Notes: generated from the sequence alone by a model not told the origin. Shown: positions 489-39,271, numbered from the stretch's first letter. The stretch is DNA of 64,000 nucleotides from Candidatus Poribacteria bacterium (GCA_964291315.2 OZ219753.1:2336001-2400000); one strand, 5' to 3'. Numbers and translations are program-made.

Positions 489-3056
489 CTACAAGGTTTC
501 AGTAACCGTAGACACTGTTCCGGTATTTCCATTAATGTGCAGCATCTGTCCGTCAACGATATGCCGGGTTGCATTAGGGATGTTGGCAACAGCGGGGACA
601 CCGTATTCTCTTGCGACAACCGCCCCGTGCGACAGGATTCCGCCGCGCTCCATCACCAAACCGGCTGCGTGCAAAAAGAGCGGTGTCCACGCGGGATCTG
701 TAGATGGGCAGACGAGGATATAATCTCGGTCAGATGGGCAGGCATCTAATGGGTTTAGAAGCACCCGTGCTTTGCCGGAGGCGCTGCCTGCCGAAACGCC
801 TACGCCCCTATATCTTTCCGCTACATCGGCAGCTGTCGGTGCACCGATCTGCTCTAGGGCATCGCTGAAAATGACATCTGGCACCTCTATCTGCAGCAGA
901 AGTTCACGTTCTACCTTACGTTTGGTAATAACGTCGCTGAGATCCTTACCGGCAATCAGTTGTTGTAATTCGTCTGGCAGCAAATAAAAAATCCCACCCT
1001 CAAGTTTATAACGACAATCCAGTTCTAGCAAAGCGCGCCGAATCTGTTCATAGCCGAGCATCAAATAGAATTTTGCTGTCTCTCTGAAGGGCATATAACG
1101 TCTTGTGAAGTCGAGTTCGCTTTCAATCTGTTTTCGTAGACTGCGCTTATCCTTCACCAATTCGGCAAGTTCTACCTCCGCGGCCTCCCGTTGTTGTGTC
1201 TGTTGCTTTGTGTCCTTATCGCCGGAGCCTGACATTTTCCCATTTTCTTGCCGGAAAGATTTAACAAGCTGTTCCAGATAAGTGGTGTCTTCACGCCACC
1301 GCGGTTGTGCCAGTTCAAACTCACCAATACCACGATGCCCGTAATCTTTGAGGAAGTCGCCAAGTGCTAAGTTTCCCGCTGCGACCTGTTGCAGTTTTGC
1401 ATTGGTTTCAACAGTGAGATTGCCGGACAGACCGCCGATAAGTCTACTCACAATAGATTTTGCCGCAGTTTCACCTGCACATTTCTGGAGCGCTGCCTCT
1501 AGCCGCTGCAGCGAGAACCCGGCAAGGAGCGTGGCGGTGAGTGCTTTTGGTGCGAATGTGTCCAACGTTTTCGTGAGCCATGTGTCAAATTTCTTTATTA
1601 ATTCCGTATCCGATAAACCTGAATATGAAATATCGCGTTCGGCTTCTACCTCTGACTGAAACGTTGGGAATACTTCTGCCGTTAACACTGCATCAAAATC
1701 CGATCGGCACTGTCTCAGCCGCATCTCTGCTCTACTCATACGGACGATGTGGAGCGGTAGTTTCAGCCAAAATGCCGCGCTGATCCGTCTAATATCAGGC
1801 GCGGCTTGCGCGTACATCGCCTGCTGTGGATACTCTTTTAACGTGTTAAAATCGTGAGCAAATGGGAACCCCTCGAAGTGAAGTTCTGCCTCGCGGCCCA
1901 AATTAACGTAGATACGCCCACAGACGAGGTCCAGAATCCCGTTACCATCTACACGCCTGCTTGGATAAAACCCGAGATCTCGGTATGCCTTGCCTAAGCC
2001 CCCGGTGCCCGACATAAATTTTCTAACAATGGACCAGGTCATGGGTAGCGGAGCAGACAGCACCTCAGCGAGATTATGATGGGACCAGACGGTGCCATGG
2101 CTGTCAGCATGTTCCGCTAAACGTTGAACCTCCCCCTGACGGAGTTTCTCAACGGATTCTGGGTCTACACGCTCAACCGGAGGCAACCGCTTAGAAGAGA
2201 TTGTAGAAGACATAGTAGTAATCGGGCGCGCCTGCAACAGCAAAAATTGTCCATCCGCTAGGGCCCATTCAATATCCATAGGTTGGCCATAGTGATTTTC
2301 GACGCGTAGGCCGAGCTCCGTAAGCTGCCGCAGTTGCACATCCGTGAGACTCGGAGCGTCTTGTCGGATAGCTGCCACTTCGCTCACACCATGACGGGTT
2401 ACCATCTCTTGTTTTGTGGCGATAGTTCTTGCCAGAACAGCGCCGGTTTCTCGTGACACATGGAAGCTGTCGGGACTTATTGCACCAGACACAACTGATT
2501 CACCCAACCCCCAATTCGATTCAACAATAGAGACTTCTGAACGAAAGGGGCTCACAGTAAAGAGCACACCGGAGACATCTGCGTTGCACATCTCTTGAAT
2601 TACAACAGCCATTGCCAACGATCCCTCAGCAATATCTTGTGTTTTTCTATAGGCGACAGCCCGGTCCGACCAGAGCGATGCCCAACACGCTTTGATGATG
2701 TTTAACAGATCATCAGGAACCACATGTAGGAAGGAGTCTTGTTGTCCTGCAAAGCTGGCTTCTACCAAATCCTCAGCTGTTGCGCTGGAGCGCACTGCCA
2801 CCGTGGCGGTCTGCAACATTTGGTGTGCGCTGTGGATTTCCGCAACAAGCTCCGGAGCCAGTGTGAGTTCTCTAATGCTCCTTGTGTCTTGTTTAGGCAC
2901 GCCTTGAACGGAGGAGCGGTAAGCATCTGTGGTCACACAAAAACCTTGGGGCACCTGAAACCCGGCACATGTCAGTTTGCCGAGATTTAACCCTTTCCCA
3001 CCCACGCGTGGAAGGTCTGCTGCGTTAATTTCTGAGAAGTGCTTGATAAATTGCAT
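489..3056 (-). CDS. PEP-synthase-like phosphotransferase with rifampicin phosphotransferase architecture (ATP-grasp, substrate domain, His swivel domain)
   Basis: N-terminal GGKGLNL, VAVRSSATAED..SFAGQ and DIEWA..LLQARPIT motifs; C-terminal TDPAWTPLF..GGILSHGAVVAREYG phospho-His motif. Confidence 0.85.
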   Translation of the reverse strand: MQFIKHFSEINAADLPRVGGKGLNLGKLTCAGFQVPQGFCVTTDAYRSSVQGVPKQDTRSIRELTLAPELVAEIHSAHQMLQTATVAVRSSATAEDLVEASFAGQQDSFLHVVPDDLLNIIKACWASLWSDRAVAYRKTQDIAEGSLAMAVVIQEMCNADVSGVLFTVSPFRSEVSIVESNWGLGESVVSGAISPDSFHVSRETGAVLARTIATKQEMVTRHGVSEVAAIRQDAPSLTDVQLRQLTELGLRVENHYGQPMDIEWALADGQFLLLQARPITTMSSTISSKRLPPVERVDPESVEKLRQGEVQRLAEHADSHGTVWSHHNLAEVLSAPLPMTWSIVRKFMSGTGGLGKAYRDLGFYPSRRVDGNGILDLVCGRIYVNLGREAELHFEGFPFAHDFNTLKEYPQQAMYAQAAPDIRRISAAFWLKLPLHIVRMSRAEMRLRQCRSDFDAVLTAEVFPTFQSEVEAERDISYSGLSDTELIKKFDTWLTKTLDTFAPKALTATLLAGFSLQRLEAALQKCAGETAAKSIVSRLIGGLSGNLTVETNAKLQQVAAGNLALGDFLKDYGHRGIGEFELAQPRWREDTTYLEQLVKSFRQENGKMSGSGDKDTKQQTQQREAAEVELAELVKDKRSLRKQIESELDFTRRYMPFRETAKFYLMLGYEQIRRALLELDCRYKLEGGIFYLLPDELQQLIAGKDLSDVITKRKVERELLLQIEVPDVIFSDALEQIGAPTAADVAERYRGVGVSAGSASGKARVLLNPLDACPSDRDYILVCPSTDPAWTPLFLHAAGLVMERGGILSHGAVVAREYGVPAVANIPNATRHIVDGQMLHINGNTGTVSTVTETL

Positions 3057-3162
3057 CAGCTGAAATGGGGCTACCAGCGGTAGAAGGCAGATTTAAGCAG
3101 AGAGCCTGTTATGAAACTCGTCTCTCTACAGAATCCTGAAGTAACTAAGGATATTAGAGACA

Positions 3163-30596: not shown

Positions 30597-31673
30597 CTAG
30601 AACTCATAAAGCGCTCGCGCGTTTTCTGCCATAATTTTCCGTTTTAAAGACGGCTCAAGACTTCGAGGGAGCGCCCGCTCCGGCGAATCAAAGTCCCAAT
30701 GCGGATAGTCGGTTGCGAACATCAATTTATCATCTAAGTCGAGCTGTACAAGAAGTTGATCGAAGTAGCCCGGCTTAGGGGGTTCTTCCATCGGTTGCGT
30801 GGTAATCCAGAAATGATCGCGGACGTACTCGGAGGGCAACCGTTTCAGCTCAGGAACCTCACCACGCAGTTTTTTCCACGCCCGATCAAGCCGCCACATG
30901 AGCGGCGGCAGCCAAGCAAACCCACCTTCAATCAGAACAACCTTCAACGTTGGAAATTGTTCAAAAACCCCCTCGCAAACGAGACTGGTTACCTGTGTCT
31001 GAAACGCTTGTGTCATGCCAGCATGGTCTTCGATATAGTGTGAGGGTTTACCGACAGCGGTGATCGGTCCCACCCCGACACCCGTGAAGTGAATGCCGAT
31101 CGGCAGATTATGCTGCACCGCTGCCTCATACATCTGCCAGTACCTCCGTCGCCCCAACGGTTCCATGGTTCGAGCCAGCAGCAATATTTGCACAAATCCG
31201 GTATGCGCTGCAAGCCGATGAATCTCGGCAGTGGTGAATGCTGCATCGTCACAGGCAACGATAATTGAGGCGCGGAGTCTCGGTTCTTTTTCAAGCCACT
31301 CTGCAATTTGCCAGTCGTTCACAGCGCTTGCCCACGCCGCTGCAAACGCAAGGTTAGGCATTTCACAGACAGGGGTGAGACAGTTAAGAATACCGTATTC
31401 TATATCAAATAGATCCAAGAGCTGCTCGCGCAGAAAACCGAGGTCGGATCCGGGGCGCTGTCCAGACGGTGTCCAAGCGTCGTATCTTGCACCAAACGGA
31501 TGCGCGCGCGGCACATATGCCCCGACCCGGTCCGTTGTGCCTACCATGCCGTGATGCTTCCGCCAACGTTCGGAGAGATATGGATACAACACCGTCTCGG
31601 AGGCGAGCGTATTGTGAACGTCACAGTCAATGACACGTGGTTTCTGCTGTTCAAATATCTCCGTTTTCGACAT
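30597..31673 (-). CDS. Amidohydrolase-fold protein (amidohydrolase-related dinuclear oxygenase-like), partner B
   Basis: IDCDVH, PGSDL, LP.GIH, EGGF.W, TTQP.E, FATDYPHWDFD; start moved to ATG 31673 (GGAGG RBS). Confidence 0.85.
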   Translation of the reverse strand: MSKTEIFEQQKPRVIDCDVHNTLASETVLYPYLSERWRKHHGMVGTTDRVGAYVPRAHPFGARYDAWTPSGQRPGSDLGFLREQLLDLFDIEYGILNCLTPVCEMPNLAFAAAWASAVNDWQIAEWLEKEPRLRASIIVACDDAAFTTAEIHRLAAHTGFVQILLLARTMEPLGRRRYWQMYEAAVQHNLPIGIHFTGVGVGPITAVGKPSHYIEDHAGMTQAFQTQVTSLVCEGVFEQFPTLKVVLIEGGFAWLPPLMWRLDRAWKKLRGEVPELKRLPSEYVRDHFWITTQPMEEPPKPGYFDQLLVQLDLDDKLMFATDYPHWDFDSPERALPRSLEPSLKRKIMAENARALYEF

Positions 31674-31816
31674 TTCTTTCCTCCACTTTAAATGTAGCGC
31701 CCACAGGAGGCACACGCTGTTGGTTTCCCGTGCCACGGACTTTTAGCATAACTTGTCGAATTCCGGTGCCACTTTAGAGGCTCCAAATAATTATCAAGAT
31801 CGCATTACCCATCTCA

Positions 31817-32587
31817 TTATTTTTCAGTTTTCAGGCGTTTTATTTCTGCCAATGCCGCTGCGAGTTCTGCGGCTGCAGCGGCTGCCCTGGCATCGGCATC
31901 TGCTGCCCGTGTTTCTGCGCGTTGTCGTGCCTTTGCCTCTGCTTGTGCGCGGGCATCAGCCTCTTGTCGTGCCTTTGCCTCTGCGGCTGCCCTGGCATCG
32001 GCGTGTCTAACCCGTCTCTCCAAAGGCTCCAGCCACGCTGAACGAACAGGATCATACAAACCGAGAACCCCATCACGCTCGCCTAACTCTAAACCCAGCA
32101 CAACCGACGGCAGACGATCCCCCACAAAACCTATCTCCTCATACACACCATCAACAAGACGATACCCGAGAAAAGAAGGCGACACCTCACCATAAGGATC
32201 GTAAATGTAATACTCGCGCACCCCAAGCACCGACGCATACAGCTCACGCTTAGCAGTCAAGTCCTGCCTATACGTGCTGCGACTCGCTAACTCTAAGATA
32301 AAATCGGGCGCATGTCCCTCTTCCCAGACCCGATAGGTGCGCCGCTGCTTTTTACTCACACCGAACACAACAAACACATCCGGCGATACCGATTTCCTCG
32401 GGTTGCCCTCCTCATAATACAGCATCAGATTGCCAGAGACGTATGCATCGTTGACATCTTGGAAGTGGTGCTCCAGCATCTGAATGCAGTCGATCATAAG
32501 TTTTCTGTGTTTGTCGGTTTCTGCCATAGGTTTATCGTCCGATTCGGGATAGACGAGCGTTGGAGCGGCTTTTATTTTGCTACACAT
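31817..32587 (-). CDS. Uma2 (DUF820) family PD-(D/E)XK endonuclease, copy 1, 256 aa
   Basis: YPESD.KPMAE, SPDVFVV, PDF.LE.AS, K..Y..LGV.EY..YDP; Ala-rich coiled-coil tail. Confidence 0.9.
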   Translation of the reverse strand: MCSKIKAAPTLVYPESDDKPMAETDKHRKLMIDCIQMLEHHFQDVNDAYVSGNLMLYYEEGNPRKSVSPDVFVVFGVSKKQRRTYRVWEEGHAPDFILELASRSTYRQDLTAKRELYASVLGVREYYIYDPYGEVSPSFLGYRLVDGVYEEIGFVGDRLPSVVLGLELGERDGVLGLYDPVRSAWLEPLERRVRHADARAAAEAKARQEADARAQAEAKARQRAETRAADADARAAAAAAELAAALAEIKRLKTEK

Positions 32588-32704
32588 AGGTCTGCCTCCT
32601 GCCTCTACTATCGTAATGAACTTATAGAATAAAGTATATCAGCAAAAGCTGGATATATCAAGTGGCTGATCTCAATAATTATCAAGGTTGCGTTGGGTAT
32701 ATGA

Positions 32705-33517
32705 TTACGTGTCAGTTTTTAGGCGTTTGAGTTCAGCCAATGCGTCTGCGAGCTCTGCGTCTGCAGCGGCTGCTTGTTGTCGTGCTTCTTCTGCTTGATC
32801 TTGAGCCTCTTGTCGTGCCTTTGCCTCTGCTTGTGCGCGGGCATCAGCCTCTTGTCGTGCCTTTGCCTCTGCTTGTGCGCGGGCATCAGCCTCTTGTCGT
32901 GCCTTTGCCTCTGCGGCTGCGCGTGCATCGGCGTGTCTAACCCGTCTCTCCAAAGGCTCCAGCCACGCTGAACGAATAGGATCATACAACCCGAGAGCCC
33001 CATCACGCTCACCTAACTCTAAACCCAGCACAAGCGACGGCAGACGATCCCCCACAAAACCTATCTCCTCATACACACCATCAACAAGGCGATACCCGAG
33101 AAAAGAAGGCGACACCTCACCATAAGGATCGTAAATGTAATACTCGCGCACCCCAAGCACCGACGCATACAACTCACGCTTAGCAGTCAAGTCCTGCCGA
33201 TAGGTGCTGCGACTCGCTAACTCTAAGATAAAATCAGGCACCTGCCCCTCTTCCCAGACCCGATAGGTGCGCCGATCCTTTTTGCTGACACCGAAGACAA
33301 CAAACACATCCGGCGATACCGATTTCCTCGGGTTGCCCTCCTCATAATACAGCATCAGATTGCCAGAGACATATGCGTCGTTGACATCTTGGAAGTGGTG
33401 CTCCAGCATCTGAATGCAGTCGATCATAAGTTTTCTGTGTTTGTCGGTTTCTGCCATAGGTTTATCGTCCGATTCGGGATAGACGAGCGTTGGAGCGGCT
33501 TTTATTTTGCTACACAT
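32705..33517 (-). CDS. Uma2 family endonuclease, copy 2, 270 aa
   Basis: Near-identical to copy 1; one extra 14-aa repeat. Confidence 0.9.
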   Translation of the reverse strand: MCSKIKAAPTLVYPESDDKPMAETDKHRKLMIDCIQMLEHHFQDVNDAYVSGNLMLYYEEGNPRKSVSPDVFVVFGVSKKDRRTYRVWEEGQVPDFILELASRSTYRQDLTAKRELYASVLGVREYYIYDPYGEVSPSFLGYRLVDGVYEEIGFVGDRLPSLVLGLELGERDGALGLYDPIRSAWLEPLERRVRHADARAAAEAKARQEADARAQAEAKARQEADARAQAEAKARQEAQDQAEEARQQAAAADAELADALAELKRLKTDT

Positions 33518-33634
33518 AGGTCTGCCTCCTGCCTCTACTATCGTAATAAACTTATAGAATAAAGTATATCAGCAAAAGCTGGATATATCAAGTGGCTGAT
33601 CTCAATAATTATCAAGGTTGCGTTGGGTATATGA

Positions 33635-34489
33635 TTACGTGTCAGTTTTCAGGCGTTTGAGTTCAGCCAATGCGTCTGCGAGCTCTGCGTCTGCAGCGGC
33701 TGCTTGTTGTCGTGCTTCTTCTGCTTGATCTTGAGCCTCTTGTCGTGCCTTTGCCTCTGCTTGTGCGCGGGCATCAGCCTCTTGTCGTGCCTTTGCCTCT
33801 GCTTGTGCGCGGGCATCAGCCTCTTGTCGTGCCTTTGCCTCTGCTTGTGCGCGGGCATCAGCCTCTTGTCGTGCCTTTGCCTCTGCGGCTGCCCTGGCAT
33901 CGGCGTGTCTAACCCGTCTCTCCAAAGGCTCCAGCCACGCTGAACGAACAGGATCATACAAACCGAGAACCCCATCACGCTCACCTAACTCTAAACCCAG
34001 CACAAGCGACGGCAGACGATCCCCCACAAAACCTATCTCCTCATACACACCATCAACAAGACGATACCCGAGAAAAGAAGGCGACACCTCACCATAAAGA
34101 TCGTAAATGTAATACTCGCGCACCCCAAGCACCGACGCATACAGCTCACGCTTAGCAGTCAAGTCCTGCCGATACGTGCTGCGACTCGCCAACTCTAACA
34201 CAAAATCGGGCGAATGTCCCTCTTCCCAGACCCGATACGTCCGCCGCTGCTTTTTACTCACACCGAACACAACAAACACATCCGGCGATACCGATTTCCT
34301 CGGGTTGCCCTCCTCATAATACAGCATCAGATTGCCAGAGACGTATGCATCGTTGATATTTTCGAAGTGGTGCTTGAGCATTTGAATGCAATCCATCATG
34401 AGGTCTCTGTGTTTCTCGGTCTCTGCCATAGGTTTATCGTCCGATTCGGGATAGACGAGCGTTGGAGCGGCTTTTATTTTGCTACACAT
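33635..34489 (-). CDS. Uma2 family endonuclease, copy 3, 284 aa
   Basis: Near-identical paralog; two extra 14-aa repeats. Confidence 0.9.
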
Positions 34490-34694
34490 AGGTCTGCCTC
34501 CTGCCTCTACTATCGTAATGAACTTATAGAATAAAGTATATCAGCAAAAGCGGGCTATATCAAGTTTTTTCATGAAGAGCAAAGTGGGGATATTCGTGTT
34601 ATTATCTGCCCCTAAAATTTCAGATAGATGGAGGTTAACGTATCTTGCCTTTCTGACGCTGCGTGAAGAAAACAAAATAGGCAGCGGCTGGGGT

Positions 34695-34737
34695 AAAAAA
34701 CGTTGGGGGTGAAACATACGTTCCACCCCCAACGTTT
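34695..34737 (-). terminator. Intrinsic terminator of the lamin-tail gene
   Basis: 18-bp near-perfect stem AAACGTTGGGGGTGAAAC / GTTCCACCCCCAACGTTT with a U-tract on the minus strand. Confidence 0.8.
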
Positions 34738-34788
34738 GATACGTCAGATTCAGATATGTCTTTGTCTCTCTAGAACCGATGCGGTCTG

Positions 34789-37674
34789 CTATCTAGCAGA
34801 CGATTTCAGCTCTCCCCAACGCGTCGTGAGCTTACCCCTCGCAGAGACATCCCCACGCAGATGCGTCGTCCGTAAGGTTGTGCGCACCCCGTCCATAGAG
34901 ACATCTTCTATCTGGTAATAATACACCACGTTAGGTTTCGCAGTGGTATCTCTGTATTTATATACATGCTTCTCAGACGTCGTGCCGTGTCCCGCAATCA
35001 GACCCTCGGCGTTGATAACCGAAAACTCACCCGTCTTGCTCTCACTGCGTAGGATGTTGAACCCCGCATTGTTGAGTTCGGACTGCGTTACCCACGTAAT
35101 CTCAACGTGGCCTGTCGAGGCGTCGCGAACAGGACGGAAACTCGAGAGCGACACGGGCAGCGGGCCACCGAGCCGATAGCCGGGCGTGCCGATATCGTCA
35201 CGATGTCCGTAGTACGTCAATGAGGCATCCACAAGCTTCCGCCAAGAGGCTTTCATCAAACCAGGATCCGCATCATGCGGACCAGAACTCCCCCCTAGGG
35301 CGAAGATACCGCCATACTTGCGCACAATAGACATCCGCACATCCCCACGCTTCGGCAGCTCCCACGCACGCTTGCGCAGACCATCCGCTATCTCAACGTT
35401 GCCAGCTGTGTCTATGACCCGCAGCTGCGACTGACCGTCTTCGCTGACCTTCGCACGAAGCTCCAGATGGAAGCCCTCCGCACTTAGCAGCCGGCGACCG
35501 TTCGTCGTCAACCCGAGATCGCTACGATGCTTCTGCTGCAAATTGTATACGTAGTTCTCCGGCACATCGTTCACACCGCTCTTCGACACCAGCAGCAACG
35601 TCTGATTCGGCGGGATATACGTCTCCGCATCAAATGTGAACGACGCATCTACATACGCATCTACGTTTGTGTCCGAGTTGCGGATCTCAAACTCCCAACC
35701 CGCAAGGTTTACCGTCTCCATCATAGAACTATTGTAGAGCTCTATCCACTGCACCAAGTCCCACCGCGGTCCCGCATCATACATGATCTCGCTGATCGTC
35801 ACCGCACCCGCAAACGCGTAGTCGTCATCCGTCGACGAGGTATCTCTATCGTTAGCGATCATGCCCACTGCCATGTTCGGATACCCCGGCGTGCCAGGGG
35901 AACTCACCTTGTCAATCACTTTATCTTTGCCGCGATCGTAGCCAGCACCCATGAAACCAAACGACTGCCAGTCGTCTTTGTGGACACGATTCGCACGAGA
36001 CTTCGCCCAATACATCCCCTTCGCGTTTAAGTGCACACCGCGACCGAACGACGCACTCCGAGAAGAGAAGGTGTTCATACCACCGAAGTCGTTATCATCC
36101 ACATCTCCCGGCTTCGACCAGCCCACGAACGGCCAGAGGTACGTGTTGAACTTCTTATCTTCCATGCGCTTGAAGAAACCGTTGCCAGCGTAGTCTTTGA
36201 TGTTCGTCGGCTTGCCAACATCATCCGCATGATTCCGCGTGCGCAACAGGATCAGGAACTTGCCCGTAGCAGGCAGACTCAGATCCTTCGCAACCGCATA
36301 CTTGTGCGTCGCCCCCATGTTGACGTCCGTTCTGTCCAACAGGTTGCTAACGTTCACACCCCCAGCGAGCTTAACGCTCTTCCCAGGCTCCCGGTTATAG
36401 ACCACCAGATACTCCCCAGGCCGCATCTTGTATTTCGGCAGCACCGCAAGGCTCGTCTCCGTGAAGTTGGCATCCCCAGACTCGTTATACCCGCTACCAT
36501 CAGACTTCATCTTCCCCATCACCAAGCTCAACTTATAGTTCTCTATGCTTATAGGGGCAGCCGCCGCGTCATCGGTATTATAGAACAACTCTACCCAATC
36601 CAAGTTTGTGTTTGACGGGTCGTTGTACACCTCATTGATGATGATGCCAGTAGCCGCGATATCGGCAGGCGCCTTATCAAACCTCACTACACTTGGACCG
36701 CCAAAAGGCACGTGAACGCTGCCCGGGGAACCGATGAAGTGCTCGGTCATGTTTGCTTTGCTGAGCGACTCCTTCCAGGAGTCCAGTTTGCTGCCGTCAC
36801 CGAGGCCATCCAATTTACCATCTTTGAGCGCATACGCCTTCCCTGTGCTGTCGAGTTTGATATCCCGATACATAGAGACCAAAGGCTTCGGAGGCAGACC
36901 GACATTTGCGTTGCCATCGGTATCACCGTCTTGACCCGGCGCATCCGGGAACCAATTCCGCCCCCAACGATCGATCGTTGACATACTATCCAAAACGACA
37001 TAATACAGGGTCGACCTAGAGACTTGTCGTCCCCACCTCTCCCCCGGAGCAGGCATCTGGGTAGAATCACTATATGGCCATAGCTGGACGAGATCACCAT
37101 CTTTCAAAGGCTTATTGACGTAAGTTTCAACCCATTGGGCTGCTTCATCCGGCTCGGGGTGATCATCACCCTCAGTTCTCGCAGCGGCATTCTGCGCCCA
37201 CATTATCTCGCTGATAACTATTGCGTGCTTGAGCTCCATAAACTTGGCTTTTGTCTCGTCAGTAAGTTTATCGGCTGCTACTGTCAACTCTGCGTTTTCA
37301 TCGCTAAGCGTGAACTCTTTGCCCACGTTGAAAGCCCGGTCACTACTGGTCGCAATTTTCAGGGTAAGAAATAACCCGCCGCCTCCGCGGAATAGGTTCT
37401 GAAGCTCCTCCCACTCATTAAAGCCGCCCTGGTTCCGCTGTGTCCCTTTTACCGTGTCCACGATGCCGTGGTCTTCTATTTTGGGTTCTGTGTTAGCAGG
37501 AAGTCCTATGCCGGGTGTGAAAGTTCGTCCGGCTGTGAAAATGTAAAACCCTTTCTCCGCTTCCCATTCGTCATCAAGCGTAAGAGCGGAAACCTGGGAG
37601 GTTGCGAAGAGGCACACCAGCCCCAACCCTACAAACAGTCTCATTTTATTACATAACATTGACATTAGTCTCAT
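34789..37674 (-). CDS. Secreted multi-lamin-tail-domain surface protein with C-terminal sorting-like motif
   Basis: Signal peptide; three I(S/N)E(I/V)...(W)(V/I)E..Y...(S/T)PG lamin-tail modules; PLPVSLSSF..YYYQIEDV domain; ends in VSARGKLTTRWGELK. Confidence 0.85.
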   Translation of the reverse strand: MRLMSMLCNKMRLFVGLGLVCLFATSQVSALTLDDEWEAEKGFYIFTAGRTFTPGIGLPANTEPKIEDHGIVDTVKGTQRNQGGFNEWEELQNLFRGGGGLFLTLKIATSSDRAFNVGKEFTLSDENAELTVAADKLTDETKAKFMELKHAIVISEIMWAQNAAARTEGDDHPEPDEAAQWVETYVNKPLKDGDLVQLWPYSDSTQMPAPGERWGRQVSRSTLYYVVLDSMSTIDRWGRNWFPDAPGQDGDTDGNANVGLPPKPLVSMYRDIKLDSTGKAYALKDGKLDGLGDGSKLDSWKESLSKANMTEHFIGSPGSVHVPFGGPSVVRFDKAPADIAATGIIINEVYNDPSNTNLDWVELFYNTDDAAAAPISIENYKLSLVMGKMKSDGSGYNESGDANFTETSLAVLPKYKMRPGEYLVVYNREPGKSVKLAGGVNVSNLLDRTDVNMGATHKYAVAKDLSLPATGKFLILLRTRNHADDVGKPTNIKDYAGNGFFKRMEDKKFNTYLWPFVGWSKPGDVDDNDFGGMNTFSSRSASFGRGVHLNAKGMYWAKSRANRVHKDDWQSFGFMGAGYDRGKDKVIDKVSSPGTPGYPNMAVGMIANDRDTSSTDDDYAFAGAVTISEIMYDAGPRWDLVQWIELYNSSMMETVNLAGWEFEIRNSDTNVDAYVDASFTFDAETYIPPNQTLLLVSKSGVNDVPENYVYNLQQKHRSDLGLTTNGRRLLSAEGFHLELRAKVSEDGQSQLRVIDTAGNVEIADGLRKRAWELPKRGDVRMSIVRKYGGIFALGGSSGPHDADPGLMKASWRKLVDASLTYYGHRDDIGTPGYRLGGPLPVSLSSFRPVRDASTGHVEITWVTQSELNNAGFNILRSESKTGEFSVINAEGLIAGHGTTSEKHVYKYRDTTAKPNVVYYYQIEDVSMDGVRTTLRTTHLRGDVSARGKLTTRWGELKSSAR

Positions 37675-38182
37675 TCTCCTCTGTTGTTAAGTTAAAGATA
37701 ACGTGAGTTTCAAAAAAGATTTAGCGGAGCTCTTTTGTAGCATGGCCTGTGCGCCTATGCCTCTTCGGCGCCTCTTACACAACCTGTTAGGCCATGTGAG
37801 TGCTCTCTTTATCCAAAGATGAACTCAATAATTATCAAACTCGCGTTAAAGATAGACAATATTATAGAGATGGAACAGAGGCCACAGATCTATTCCGTCT
37901 CCATGGATCCGACTTTATGCTCAGGAACCGCCTCAGCCCCCGATATTAGTGTCGTTTTCTGTTGAAATTTTCTGATTTTCATGTGCGTTCTCGTTGCGTC
38001 TTAAACGGTCAAAGAACGTTATAATATGATACAATACTATAACGCAAAAAGTCAACAAAAAATAACAGAATATTTTGTTAGCGGCGCGATTATCACTCCT
38101 GCTATCTTCTGCACACGATGCTCCTATGCTTCGGATTAAATAAACCGGTTAGAGAACCAAAACGGTGGGCAGTTTATGAAGT

Positions 38183-39271
38183 TCACGTTAAACTATAGCA
38201 TTCCCGCGCGTTTTCAGACAAGATTTTGCGTGTCAGCGATCGCGACAATTGTGTGGGGAGAGCGGCCTCGGGCGAGTCGAAATGCCAATGCGGGTAGTCG
38301 CTTGAAAACATCAACATATCTTCTGAGTCAAGCTGCCCCAAAATCTGAAGCAGTTCCGCGGCTGTTGGCGGTGCATCAATCGGTTGAAGAGTCATGCGGA
38401 TGTGTTCTCGGATATACGCTGATGGCGGCCGCTTTAACCAAGGCGTCAGTCCACGCAAACCTCGCCACTCTTTATCGAACCGCCACATCAACGAGGGCAT
38501 CCAAGTGACACCCGTTTCTATAAGCGCGACGCGCAAGTATGGAAATGTATCAAAAACACCCTCCGACACAAGGCTCAGCACCTGCGCCTGAAATACTTGT
38601 GACATGCCAACGTACTCCTCTAAATAGGTTGAGGGCCATCCGACAGAGGTCGGCGGCAGTCCCGGGGCACCACCGTAGTGGATACCGATGACCAGATTAT
38701 GACGAGCAGCCGCGGCATAGAGAGGATGATAACGTCTATTGCCGTAAGGCACTTGTGATCGAGCAGGCAGCAGTATCTGCACAAACCCCGGATGTGCGCC
38801 TAGACGCTCAACCTCCCGGGCAGCGAGTGCGGGGTTCTGACTTGGAACAATCAGTGAACCCCGTAGGCGCGGCTCCGGGTCGAGCCAGTGTTCAATCTGC
38901 CAATCATTGACTGCGGAAGCGAGCGCTGCCGCGAGGTCTTCGTTGTGCACGCTCTGGGCACGAAACCCACAAGTGAGTATACCGGTTTCAACCGCCCAGA
39001 AATCGAGGGCGTGCTTCCGCAACAGTGCAAGGTCCGATGCCGGGCGACCTTCTAACGGCTGCCTAATCTCCGGGCGCTTTGAAGTCGCCACACCGTCCGG
39101 ATAGTCGTTCGCATCTGGCCCAGGAAACCCCGACTCCTCACAATAGTCACACCAATAATCCGGTAAATAGGGGTAGAGCATCCGAAGCGACGGAAGACGG
39201 TTATGCAGGTCACAGTCAATTATAGACATGCCGTCTTGAACGAAACCGGGTTTGGAATTCTCCGTATCCAT
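38183..39271 (-). CDS. Amidohydrolase-fold protein (amidohydrolase-related dinuclear oxygenase-like), partner A
   Basis: IDCDLH, SAVNDWQ..W, GIH.GG, EGVF..FP, TLQP.D, FSSDYPHW. Confidence 0.85.
   Translation of the reverse strand: MDTENSKPGFVQDGMSIIDCDLHNRLPSLRMLYPYLPDYWCDYCEESGFPGPDANDYPDGVATSKRPEIRQPLEGRPASDLALLRKHALDFWAVETGILTCGFRAQSVHNEDLAAALASAVNDWQIEHWLDPEPRLRGSLIVPSQNPALAAREVERLGAHPGFVQILLPARSQVPYGNRRYHPLYAAAARHNLVIGIHYGGAPGLPPTSVGWPSTYLEEYVGMSQVFQAQVLSLVSEGVFDTFPYLRVALIETGVTWMPSLMWRFDKEWRGLRGLTPWLKRPPSAYIREHIRMTLQPIDAPPTAAELLQILGQLDSEDMLMFSSDYPHWHFDSPEAALPTQLSRSLTRKILSENARECYSLT

Follow-up and report, generated by a model that had tools for sequence, protein, structure and literature searches.

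The closest described counterparts of the element reported here are MITECca01 and MITECca02, MITEs (miniature inverted-repeat transposable elements) of the Cardinium endosymbiont of Oedothorax gibbosus that derive from ISCca4, an insertion sequence (IS) of the IS982 family. The Cardinium MITE is described as about 240 bp long, its ends like those of its parent ISCca4 and its spread lineage-specific (PMC9769881). Here, we describe a MITE family in a sponge-symbiont Poribacteria genome (assembly G000, 4.40 Mb in four contigs), marked by a motif that recurs in a 64-kb stretch of contig C4 (G000:C4:2336001-2400000). We call this stretch the window, and positions given without a contig name are counted from its first letter. 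The initial annotation of the window had taken the motif for a recombination or target site bordering gene cassettes. Our analysis indicates that it is very probably one end of a non-coding MITE descended from an IS982-family IS, and that two of its four copies in the window arose through tandem duplication of a Uma2 gene.

Pneumococcal BOX and enterobacterial BIME/REP sequences offer a further comparison, as they share with this MITE a modular build (end A, variable hairpin modules, end B) and a strictly intergenic location. Unlike these repeats, the MITE has ends that are inverted repeats in common with a transposase-bearing IS, together with target-site duplications and empty sites. The kind of element is well known: this is an ordinary IS982-derived MITE, and the literature that we searched held no paper linking Poribacteria with MITEs.

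A short element with two ends

The 12-mer AATAATTATCAA has exactly four matches in the window, all on the plus strand, at 31786, 32674, 33604 and 37827 (sites 1 to 4), as the initial annotation had stated. Shuffled sequences gave a mean of 0.31 matches per shuffle and four or more in none of 100 shuffles, and permitting one mismatch added no further match within the 64 kb. The sequence also bears out the described tails (GATCGCATTA, GGTTGCGTTG twice, and ACTCGCGTTA) and the presence of CTCAATAATTATCAA at sites 2, 3 and 4. The motif itself is longer than the approximately 22 bp first proposed. The 12-mer has 38 exact copies genome-wide, and about 50 bp around it are conserved among these copies.

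The genome-wide scan that had been suggested as a check did turn up many further copies, in diverse intergenic contexts rather than at the borders of cassettes. A search of the G000 contigs with an nhmmer profile built from 21 copies placed the motif-bearing end at 113 positions at E<=10 and at 61 positions at E<1e-3, the latter spread over three of the four contigs, with none on C2. By a simple longest-ORF (open reading frame) call, in which ORFs cover 82-88% of each contig, all 61 are intergenic (0/61 within called ORFs). The neighboring gene on the inner side reads away from the element in 41 of 61 cases and that on the terminal side in 33 of 61, both neighbors read towards it in 5, and the proteins encoded on either side form 94 clusters. 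Searched as a pattern of 33 letters that allows up to 3 mismatches, the same end has 38 matches in G000 (reversed control, 0) and none in the 60 congeners that we drew from a genus with more genomes. The G000 copies are probably the product of a lineage-specific burst.

Some of these matches are counted more than once. Segments of 18.5 kb (C1:631873-650350 and C4:3243132-3261609) and 13.2 kb (C2:1-13224 and C3:1-13225) are duplicated at contig ends, each as a single BLAST match with an identity of at least 85%. Probably these segments are overlaps of the assembly or large repeats; because of them, two MITE matches (C1:645997 and C4:3247433) are counted twice. Three variant ends (C3:38174, C3:222477 and C4:490306) have identical terminal-side flanks and lie in repeats of ~440-620 bp beside ORFs of 125-146 amino acids (aa), and they may be part of a larger repeated unit.

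Many copies have a second conserved end on their inner side, beyond short hairpin modules. We refer to the motif-bearing end as the IRL type and to this second end as the IRR type, after the left and right inverted repeats of insertion sequences. The terminal ~14 bp are common to both types in inverted orientation, so the element has terminal inverted repeats. At E<=0.01, an IRR-type end is paired with 31 of 71 IRL-type ends, on the same strand and 55-256 bp away. The resulting 31 complete elements are non-coding, measure 104-292 bp (median, 171), and are ordered as IRR-type end, one to three hairpin modules, and IRL-type end. Ten of the 31 are flanked immediately by perfect direct repeats of 5-7 bp; in a control that paired left flanks with the right flanks of other elements, repeats of at least 5 bp occurred in 16 of 930 pairings (1.7%). 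The family shows the features by which MITEs are recognized, being shorter than 300 bp, as MITEs typically are, and dispersed, with inverted repeats, target-site duplications and empty sites, no transposase gene, and ends that match those of an autonomous IS.

Site 4 is a complete copy of 148 bp (37700..37847, plus strand), identified by its paired ends, its similarity to the repeat family, and the alignment of its ends with IS982-like IRL and IRR sequences. Its IRR-type end lies on the left (37700-37741), the hairpin modules in the middle (37742-37793), and the IRL-type end that holds the motif on the right (37794-37847); within the 148 bp there is no ORF of 60 aa or more. The hexamer AAAGAT directly precedes (37694..37699) and follows (37848..37853) the element. 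Similarity to the repeat family runs exactly from 37698/37699 to 37848, and similarity to paralogs of the adjacent lamin-tail-domain (LTD) gene ends at 37688-37700. The initial annotation had recognized that triplication of the Uma2 genes could not account for this site, which fits a complete MITE with AAAGAT on both sides.

Insertion is shown by loci that lack the element. In 9 of 9 aligned congener loci, the flanks of the copy at C4:334145-334326 match on both sides and the 182 bp between them are absent, and all nine have a single AAAAT where G000 has AAAAT on either side of the element. For the copy at C4:1847161-1847287, the corresponding 127 bp are missing at a paralogous site in G000, which has one ATCTAT, and at several congener sites; this test (locus L090) met a multi-copy gene family, so the empty sites readable there are paralogous and not orthologous. 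The site 4 copy likewise has a paralogous counterpart (C4:2457333-2457440) in which both flanks are joined without the element around a single related hexamer. We also compared site 4 with contigs from three public runs of one study (X1 to X3). In four contigs of X2 and seven of X3, the match extends to 37848 and the sequences diverge from there, which marks the right border of the element. One contig of X1 and one of X3 have a joint from 37716 to 38018 that disagrees with the borders of the element; its source may be a different copy or organism.

The interior of the element is itself repetitive. In the window copy (37742-37793), in other G000 copies and in L002-L004, it is made up of REP-like hairpin modules, between one and three of them, with stems that differ by matched changes on both sides. 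When 30 relatives were searched by BLAST with the whole element, the hairpin part alone was matched, in 3 genomes, and the modules may therefore form a repeat family of their own within the MITE. A census of their 6-mers was dropped as too unspecific. There is also a second MITE subfamily with the same terminal bases and a different subterminal sequence, represented by L070 589-771 (C4:459888-460070) and by copies at C4:1871584, 2075032, 2458129, 2575613, 3088985 and 239044. In one case, a copy of this subfamily is found 86 bp upstream of the gene encoding a 588-aa DNA methylase (PF01555), a gene itself within a repeated unit of ~3 kb.

The probable parent element and the copies beside Uma2 genes

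IRR-type ends occur in 33 of the 60 congeners, in 1-12 copies each and often at contig ends. One congener (G049) has an intact element of ~1.02 kb (L075 2158-3179) with terminal inverted repeats and a single ORF (2254-3150). The motif-type end lies on its left, followed by a TATAAT-like box, an ORF of 298 aa, and the other end type on the right. The encoded DDE transposase matches PF13612 (E 6.2e-63) and the NCBIfam model NF033520, "IS982 family transposase" (247.5 bits, cut-off 130), and both ends of the window MITE align with the IRL and IRR of this element. A second congener (G069) carries a 328-bp copy with the same ends and the 3' end of the transposase gene still between them, which by its sequence is an intermediate internal-deletion derivative. 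Members of the IS982 family make target duplications of 3-9 bp according to ISfinder, and the short and variable 5-7 bp of the MITE copies agree with this; the G049 element itself has no perfect repeat. Compared with the IS itself, the window element lacks the transposase and has about one seventh of the length, and we therefore class it as a derivative and not as a member of the family.

An IS982-family DDE transposase supplied in trans would bind both ends of the MITE and cut and paste it, as we infer from the family to which the parent belongs. The suggestion of an in-trans mobilization system thus holds insofar as this is a non-autonomous mobile element in need of an enzyme from elsewhere; the part that fails is the role given to the motif, which is the end of the element and not a target site. 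Intact IS982-family transposase genes were not found in the G000 assembly by tblastn or with NF033520, and the copies in this genome are therefore probably immobile relics of the lineage-specific burst.

The Cardinium MITEs, compared through their published description, are similar in being short and non-coding with IS982-like inverted repeats, in retaining some subterminal sequence next to the left repeat, in their lineage-specific spread, and in having deletion intermediates with the transposase 3' end, for which the 328-bp copy is the counterpart here (PMC9769881). They differ, on the same description, in that the Cardinium MITE of ~240 bp coexists with intact parents, whereas the elements described here measure 104-292 bp in a host with transposase fragments only, and in that the interior here is a variable number of REP-like hairpin modules (PMC9769881). 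The hosts differ as well, a Bacteroidota endosymbiont in the one case and a Poribacteria metagenome-assembled genome in the other.

The other three sites in the window lie beside three tandem Uma2 (PF05685) genes on the minus strand (31817-32587, 32705-33517 and 33635-34489; 256, 270 and 284 aa), 9-20 bp beyond their stop codons, in keeping with the initial description of copies just past the stops. The array is built of a 930-bp unit consisting of an end fragment at positions 1-30, the Uma2 gene, and a promoter-like region. By nhmmer and unit mapping, site 3 (33595..33624, plus strand) carries model positions 22-50 of the IRL-type end as a 30-bp fragment that starts such a unit, and site 2 (32665..32694, plus strand) is that fragment again in the next tandem unit. 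Because both occupy positions 1-30 of the tandem unit, they are copies made by gene duplication and not insertions. Site 1 (31777..31808, plus strand), which shows the same junction of end and Uma2 gene at the close of the array, comprises the IRL-type end's terminal 32 bp (nhmmer E 1.1e-4, with short BLAST matches to other copies) and is, judging from these matches, a truncated MITE copy beside the last Uma2 gene. Triplication, offered earlier as a possible source of the Uma2-side copies, thus accounts for sites 2 and 3, which lie within the duplicated unit.

Besides its three repeats in the window, the 930-bp unit has six at C4:1330291-1335794, the first of them directly beside a complete element, and single units occur at four other loci, of which C4:415.8 kb and C4:511 kb retain the end. 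The lengths of the three Uma2 genes increase in steps of 14 residues, and the tail region of the unit has self-matches at an offset of 42 nucleotides (nt).

In the history that we favor, site 4 is an intact MITE insertion into the upstream region of the LTD gene, and site 1 a truncated copy at the last Uma2 gene; 30 bp of the end were copied along with the 930-bp Uma2 unit, giving sites 2 and 3. Several observations weigh against it. Perfect duplications of at least 5 bp are absent from 21 of the 31 complete elements, 16 of which have none at the chosen boundary, and the intact G049 element lacks a perfect target duplication too. Where present, the duplications vary in length from 5 to 7 bp, and the border of the element is ambiguous by 1-2 bp because its outermost bases mimic the target duplication. 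G000 holds only fragments of IS982-family transposases, recovered as tblastn pieces of 15-140 aa and as six matches to the NCBIfam transposase model that all score 51 bits or less against the cut-off of 130, and for this reason the parent is inferred from congeners. At C4:1281321-1281465, the flanking genes are conserved in congeners and the spacer differs, so that no empty site can be read there. At site 4, one contig of 739 bases from a second sample spans the locus with the element in place, and the public-run contigs contained no precise excision joint. At site 1, the resemblance of the interior (31716-31736) to a MITE hairpin module is weak, as is its match to other copies (BLAST E 0.035).

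Regulation, or movement with Uma2, as alternatives

One alternative is that the motif is primarily regulatory, serving as a promoter element or as a box for a dimeric transcription factor, Fur-like or other, centered on the ATAATTAT palindrome, and that its copies define an intergenic regulon. The intergenic location of all 61 copies is compatible with this. So is the core, with its 8-bp palindrome and a GATAAT hexamer that a scan paired with flanking hexamers at two sites (9/12 matches). Fusion and outward promoters are, moreover, reported to arise from IS982-family elements (PMC9330008). A regulon site would nonetheless be expected to persist in some relatives, and there are no matches in the 60 congeners (up to 3 mismatches); the orthologous sites of the C4:334145-334326 copy are empty. 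What is conserved, some 50 bp together with a second end, far exceeds a binding site in size, and neither orientation nor distance to genes is fixed, with 5 of the 61 copies between convergent genes. Promoter-like matches in the region number 10, which is not above the 6.2 +/- 2.5 of shuffled sequences, and the strong promoter-like sites of the Uma2 genes lie outside the motif. These are TTGATA-17-TATACT sequences, recognized by consensus match only, on the minus strand beside the motif at Uma2 copy 1 (32633..32661) and again at 33563-33591 and 34535-34563. We consider a primarily regulatory motif very unlikely.

Other known signals were also tried on the motif. Inspection of the 50-bp consensus by eye gave no good hexamer pair at a fixed spacing for a sigma-70, extracytoplasmic function (ECF) or Bacteroidetes-type promoter. 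IHF-like and Fur-like readings of the core did not fit in spacing or half-sites and were dropped after the two-ended structure emerged. Rfam gave no match at E<=1 in 31500-38300.

The MITE at site 4 lies in the upstream region of the LTD gene (34789..37674, minus strand), whose product is 961 aa as called. The element ends 25 bp upstream of the called start, and the motif itself stands 153 bp upstream of the start codon, an ATG at 37674, close to the ~150 bp first noted. Given this position and the outward promoters described for the family (PMC9330008), the insertion could conceivably affect expression of the gene. The LTD gene belongs to a multi-copy family of ~3 kb, with members at 34689-37685 in the window and at about eight other places in G000, several of them with a DNA identity of at least 85%. 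Several LTD-family genes have a MITE copy upstream, and a diverged paralogous locus (C4:851316-851814) has the element too.

A different possibility is that the IRL-type end and the adjoining Uma2 gene travel together, through one-ended transposition or through a Uma2 nuclease acting on the end. If true, an IS982-derived end would be tied to the way in which the Uma2 nuclease family spreads. The end does lie ~10-25 bp from the Uma2 stop in four of six loci of this subfamily (the window array, the C4:1330 kb array, C4:511 kb and C4:415.8 kb). The Uma2 gene, however, is outside the terminus of the element, and a complete element stands beside just one of these four loci. No end is present near the remaining two subfamily loci (C4:1509 kb and C4:2432 kb), or near the distant Uma2 genes at C1:60058, C4:2998707, C4:1466409, C1:132949 and C4:805679. 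Reading 34490-34790 by eye, with no formal search, we saw no correctly oriented second end past the Uma2 promoter. The distant genes come from a search with at least ten genome matches, the window's three not among them, and 6 of the 10 listed lack the end. One ancestral insertion and subsequent duplication of the gene account for the pattern, in that a single ancestral junction was copied with the gene. The initial proposal that the motif might be tied to Uma2 spread is accordingly not upheld, and we regard joint movement as highly improbable.

The slot between two amidohydrolases

The block that holds the four sites lies between two amidohydrolase genes of family PF04909, A (30597..31736, minus strand) and B (38183..39271, minus strand), and all of its genes, from A through B, are on the minus strand. 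Both amidohydrolases have orthologs in 40 of 40 congeners searched, that of A with 87-90% identity. The initial annotation expected the two genes to be natural neighbors. In the congeners they are not: 17 of 17 loci retrieved have 3.0-12.5 kb of variable content between them. These loci therefore offer no adjacent, "empty" state for the comparison that had been proposed.

By tblastn, no Uma2 or LTD homolog was found between the amidohydrolases in these 17 loci (L029-L045). A scan of 31 of their 84 ORFs showed a beta-lactamase-family gene in the slot of most congeners sampled. The slot, which amidohydrolase B borders on one side, also holds variable genes, among them those for toxins (BrnT, PIN), for an EcoRI-like nuclease accompanied by a D12 methylase, for HSDR_N-like proteins of nuclease fold, for Kelch and DUF5916 proteins, and for fusions of ~970-986 aa between an ECF sigma factor and BNR/Sortilin repeats. 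As far as these gene contents indicate, the slot is variable, the genes in it are particular to G000 in this genome, and the motif is no marker of the arrival of that content.

There remains the original reading, in which a site-specific system would move cassettes ([Uma2][Uma2][Uma2 + surface protein]), delimited by the motif, between neighboring amidohydrolases. It draws on the four copies in one orientation at gene borders, on the lack of the Uma2 and LTD block in all 17 congener slots, and on the variability of a slot that elsewhere holds toxin-antitoxin and restriction-modification genes, but it has next to no chance of being correct, since the motif belongs to a two-ended element of ~150 bp with target duplications and empty sites, is dispersed over 61 intergenic places beside unrelated genes, occurs at sites 2 and 3 within a tandem-duplication unit, and has no recombinase among the nine neighboring proteins scanned. 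The earlier judgment that the motif fits neither integron attC nor Xer dif does stand. It resembles both in being a short repeated site at gene borders in one orientation. Unlike attC, it forms no cassette array, and the nine neighboring proteins include no integrase (no genome-wide integrase search was made); unlike dif, which occurs once per replicon near the terminus, it has 38 exact cores dispersed through the genome.

Recognizing the motif as the end of an IS982-derived MITE removes a false lead, as the block is not a new cassette-exchange system. For annotation, it supplies a defined MITE family with two end types, at least 61 copies and a second subfamily. Many contig breaks and conserved intergenic stretches, in G000 and in its congeners, find their explanation in this family. 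It also flags insertions directly upstream of genes, such as the LTD gene, which could alter their expression.

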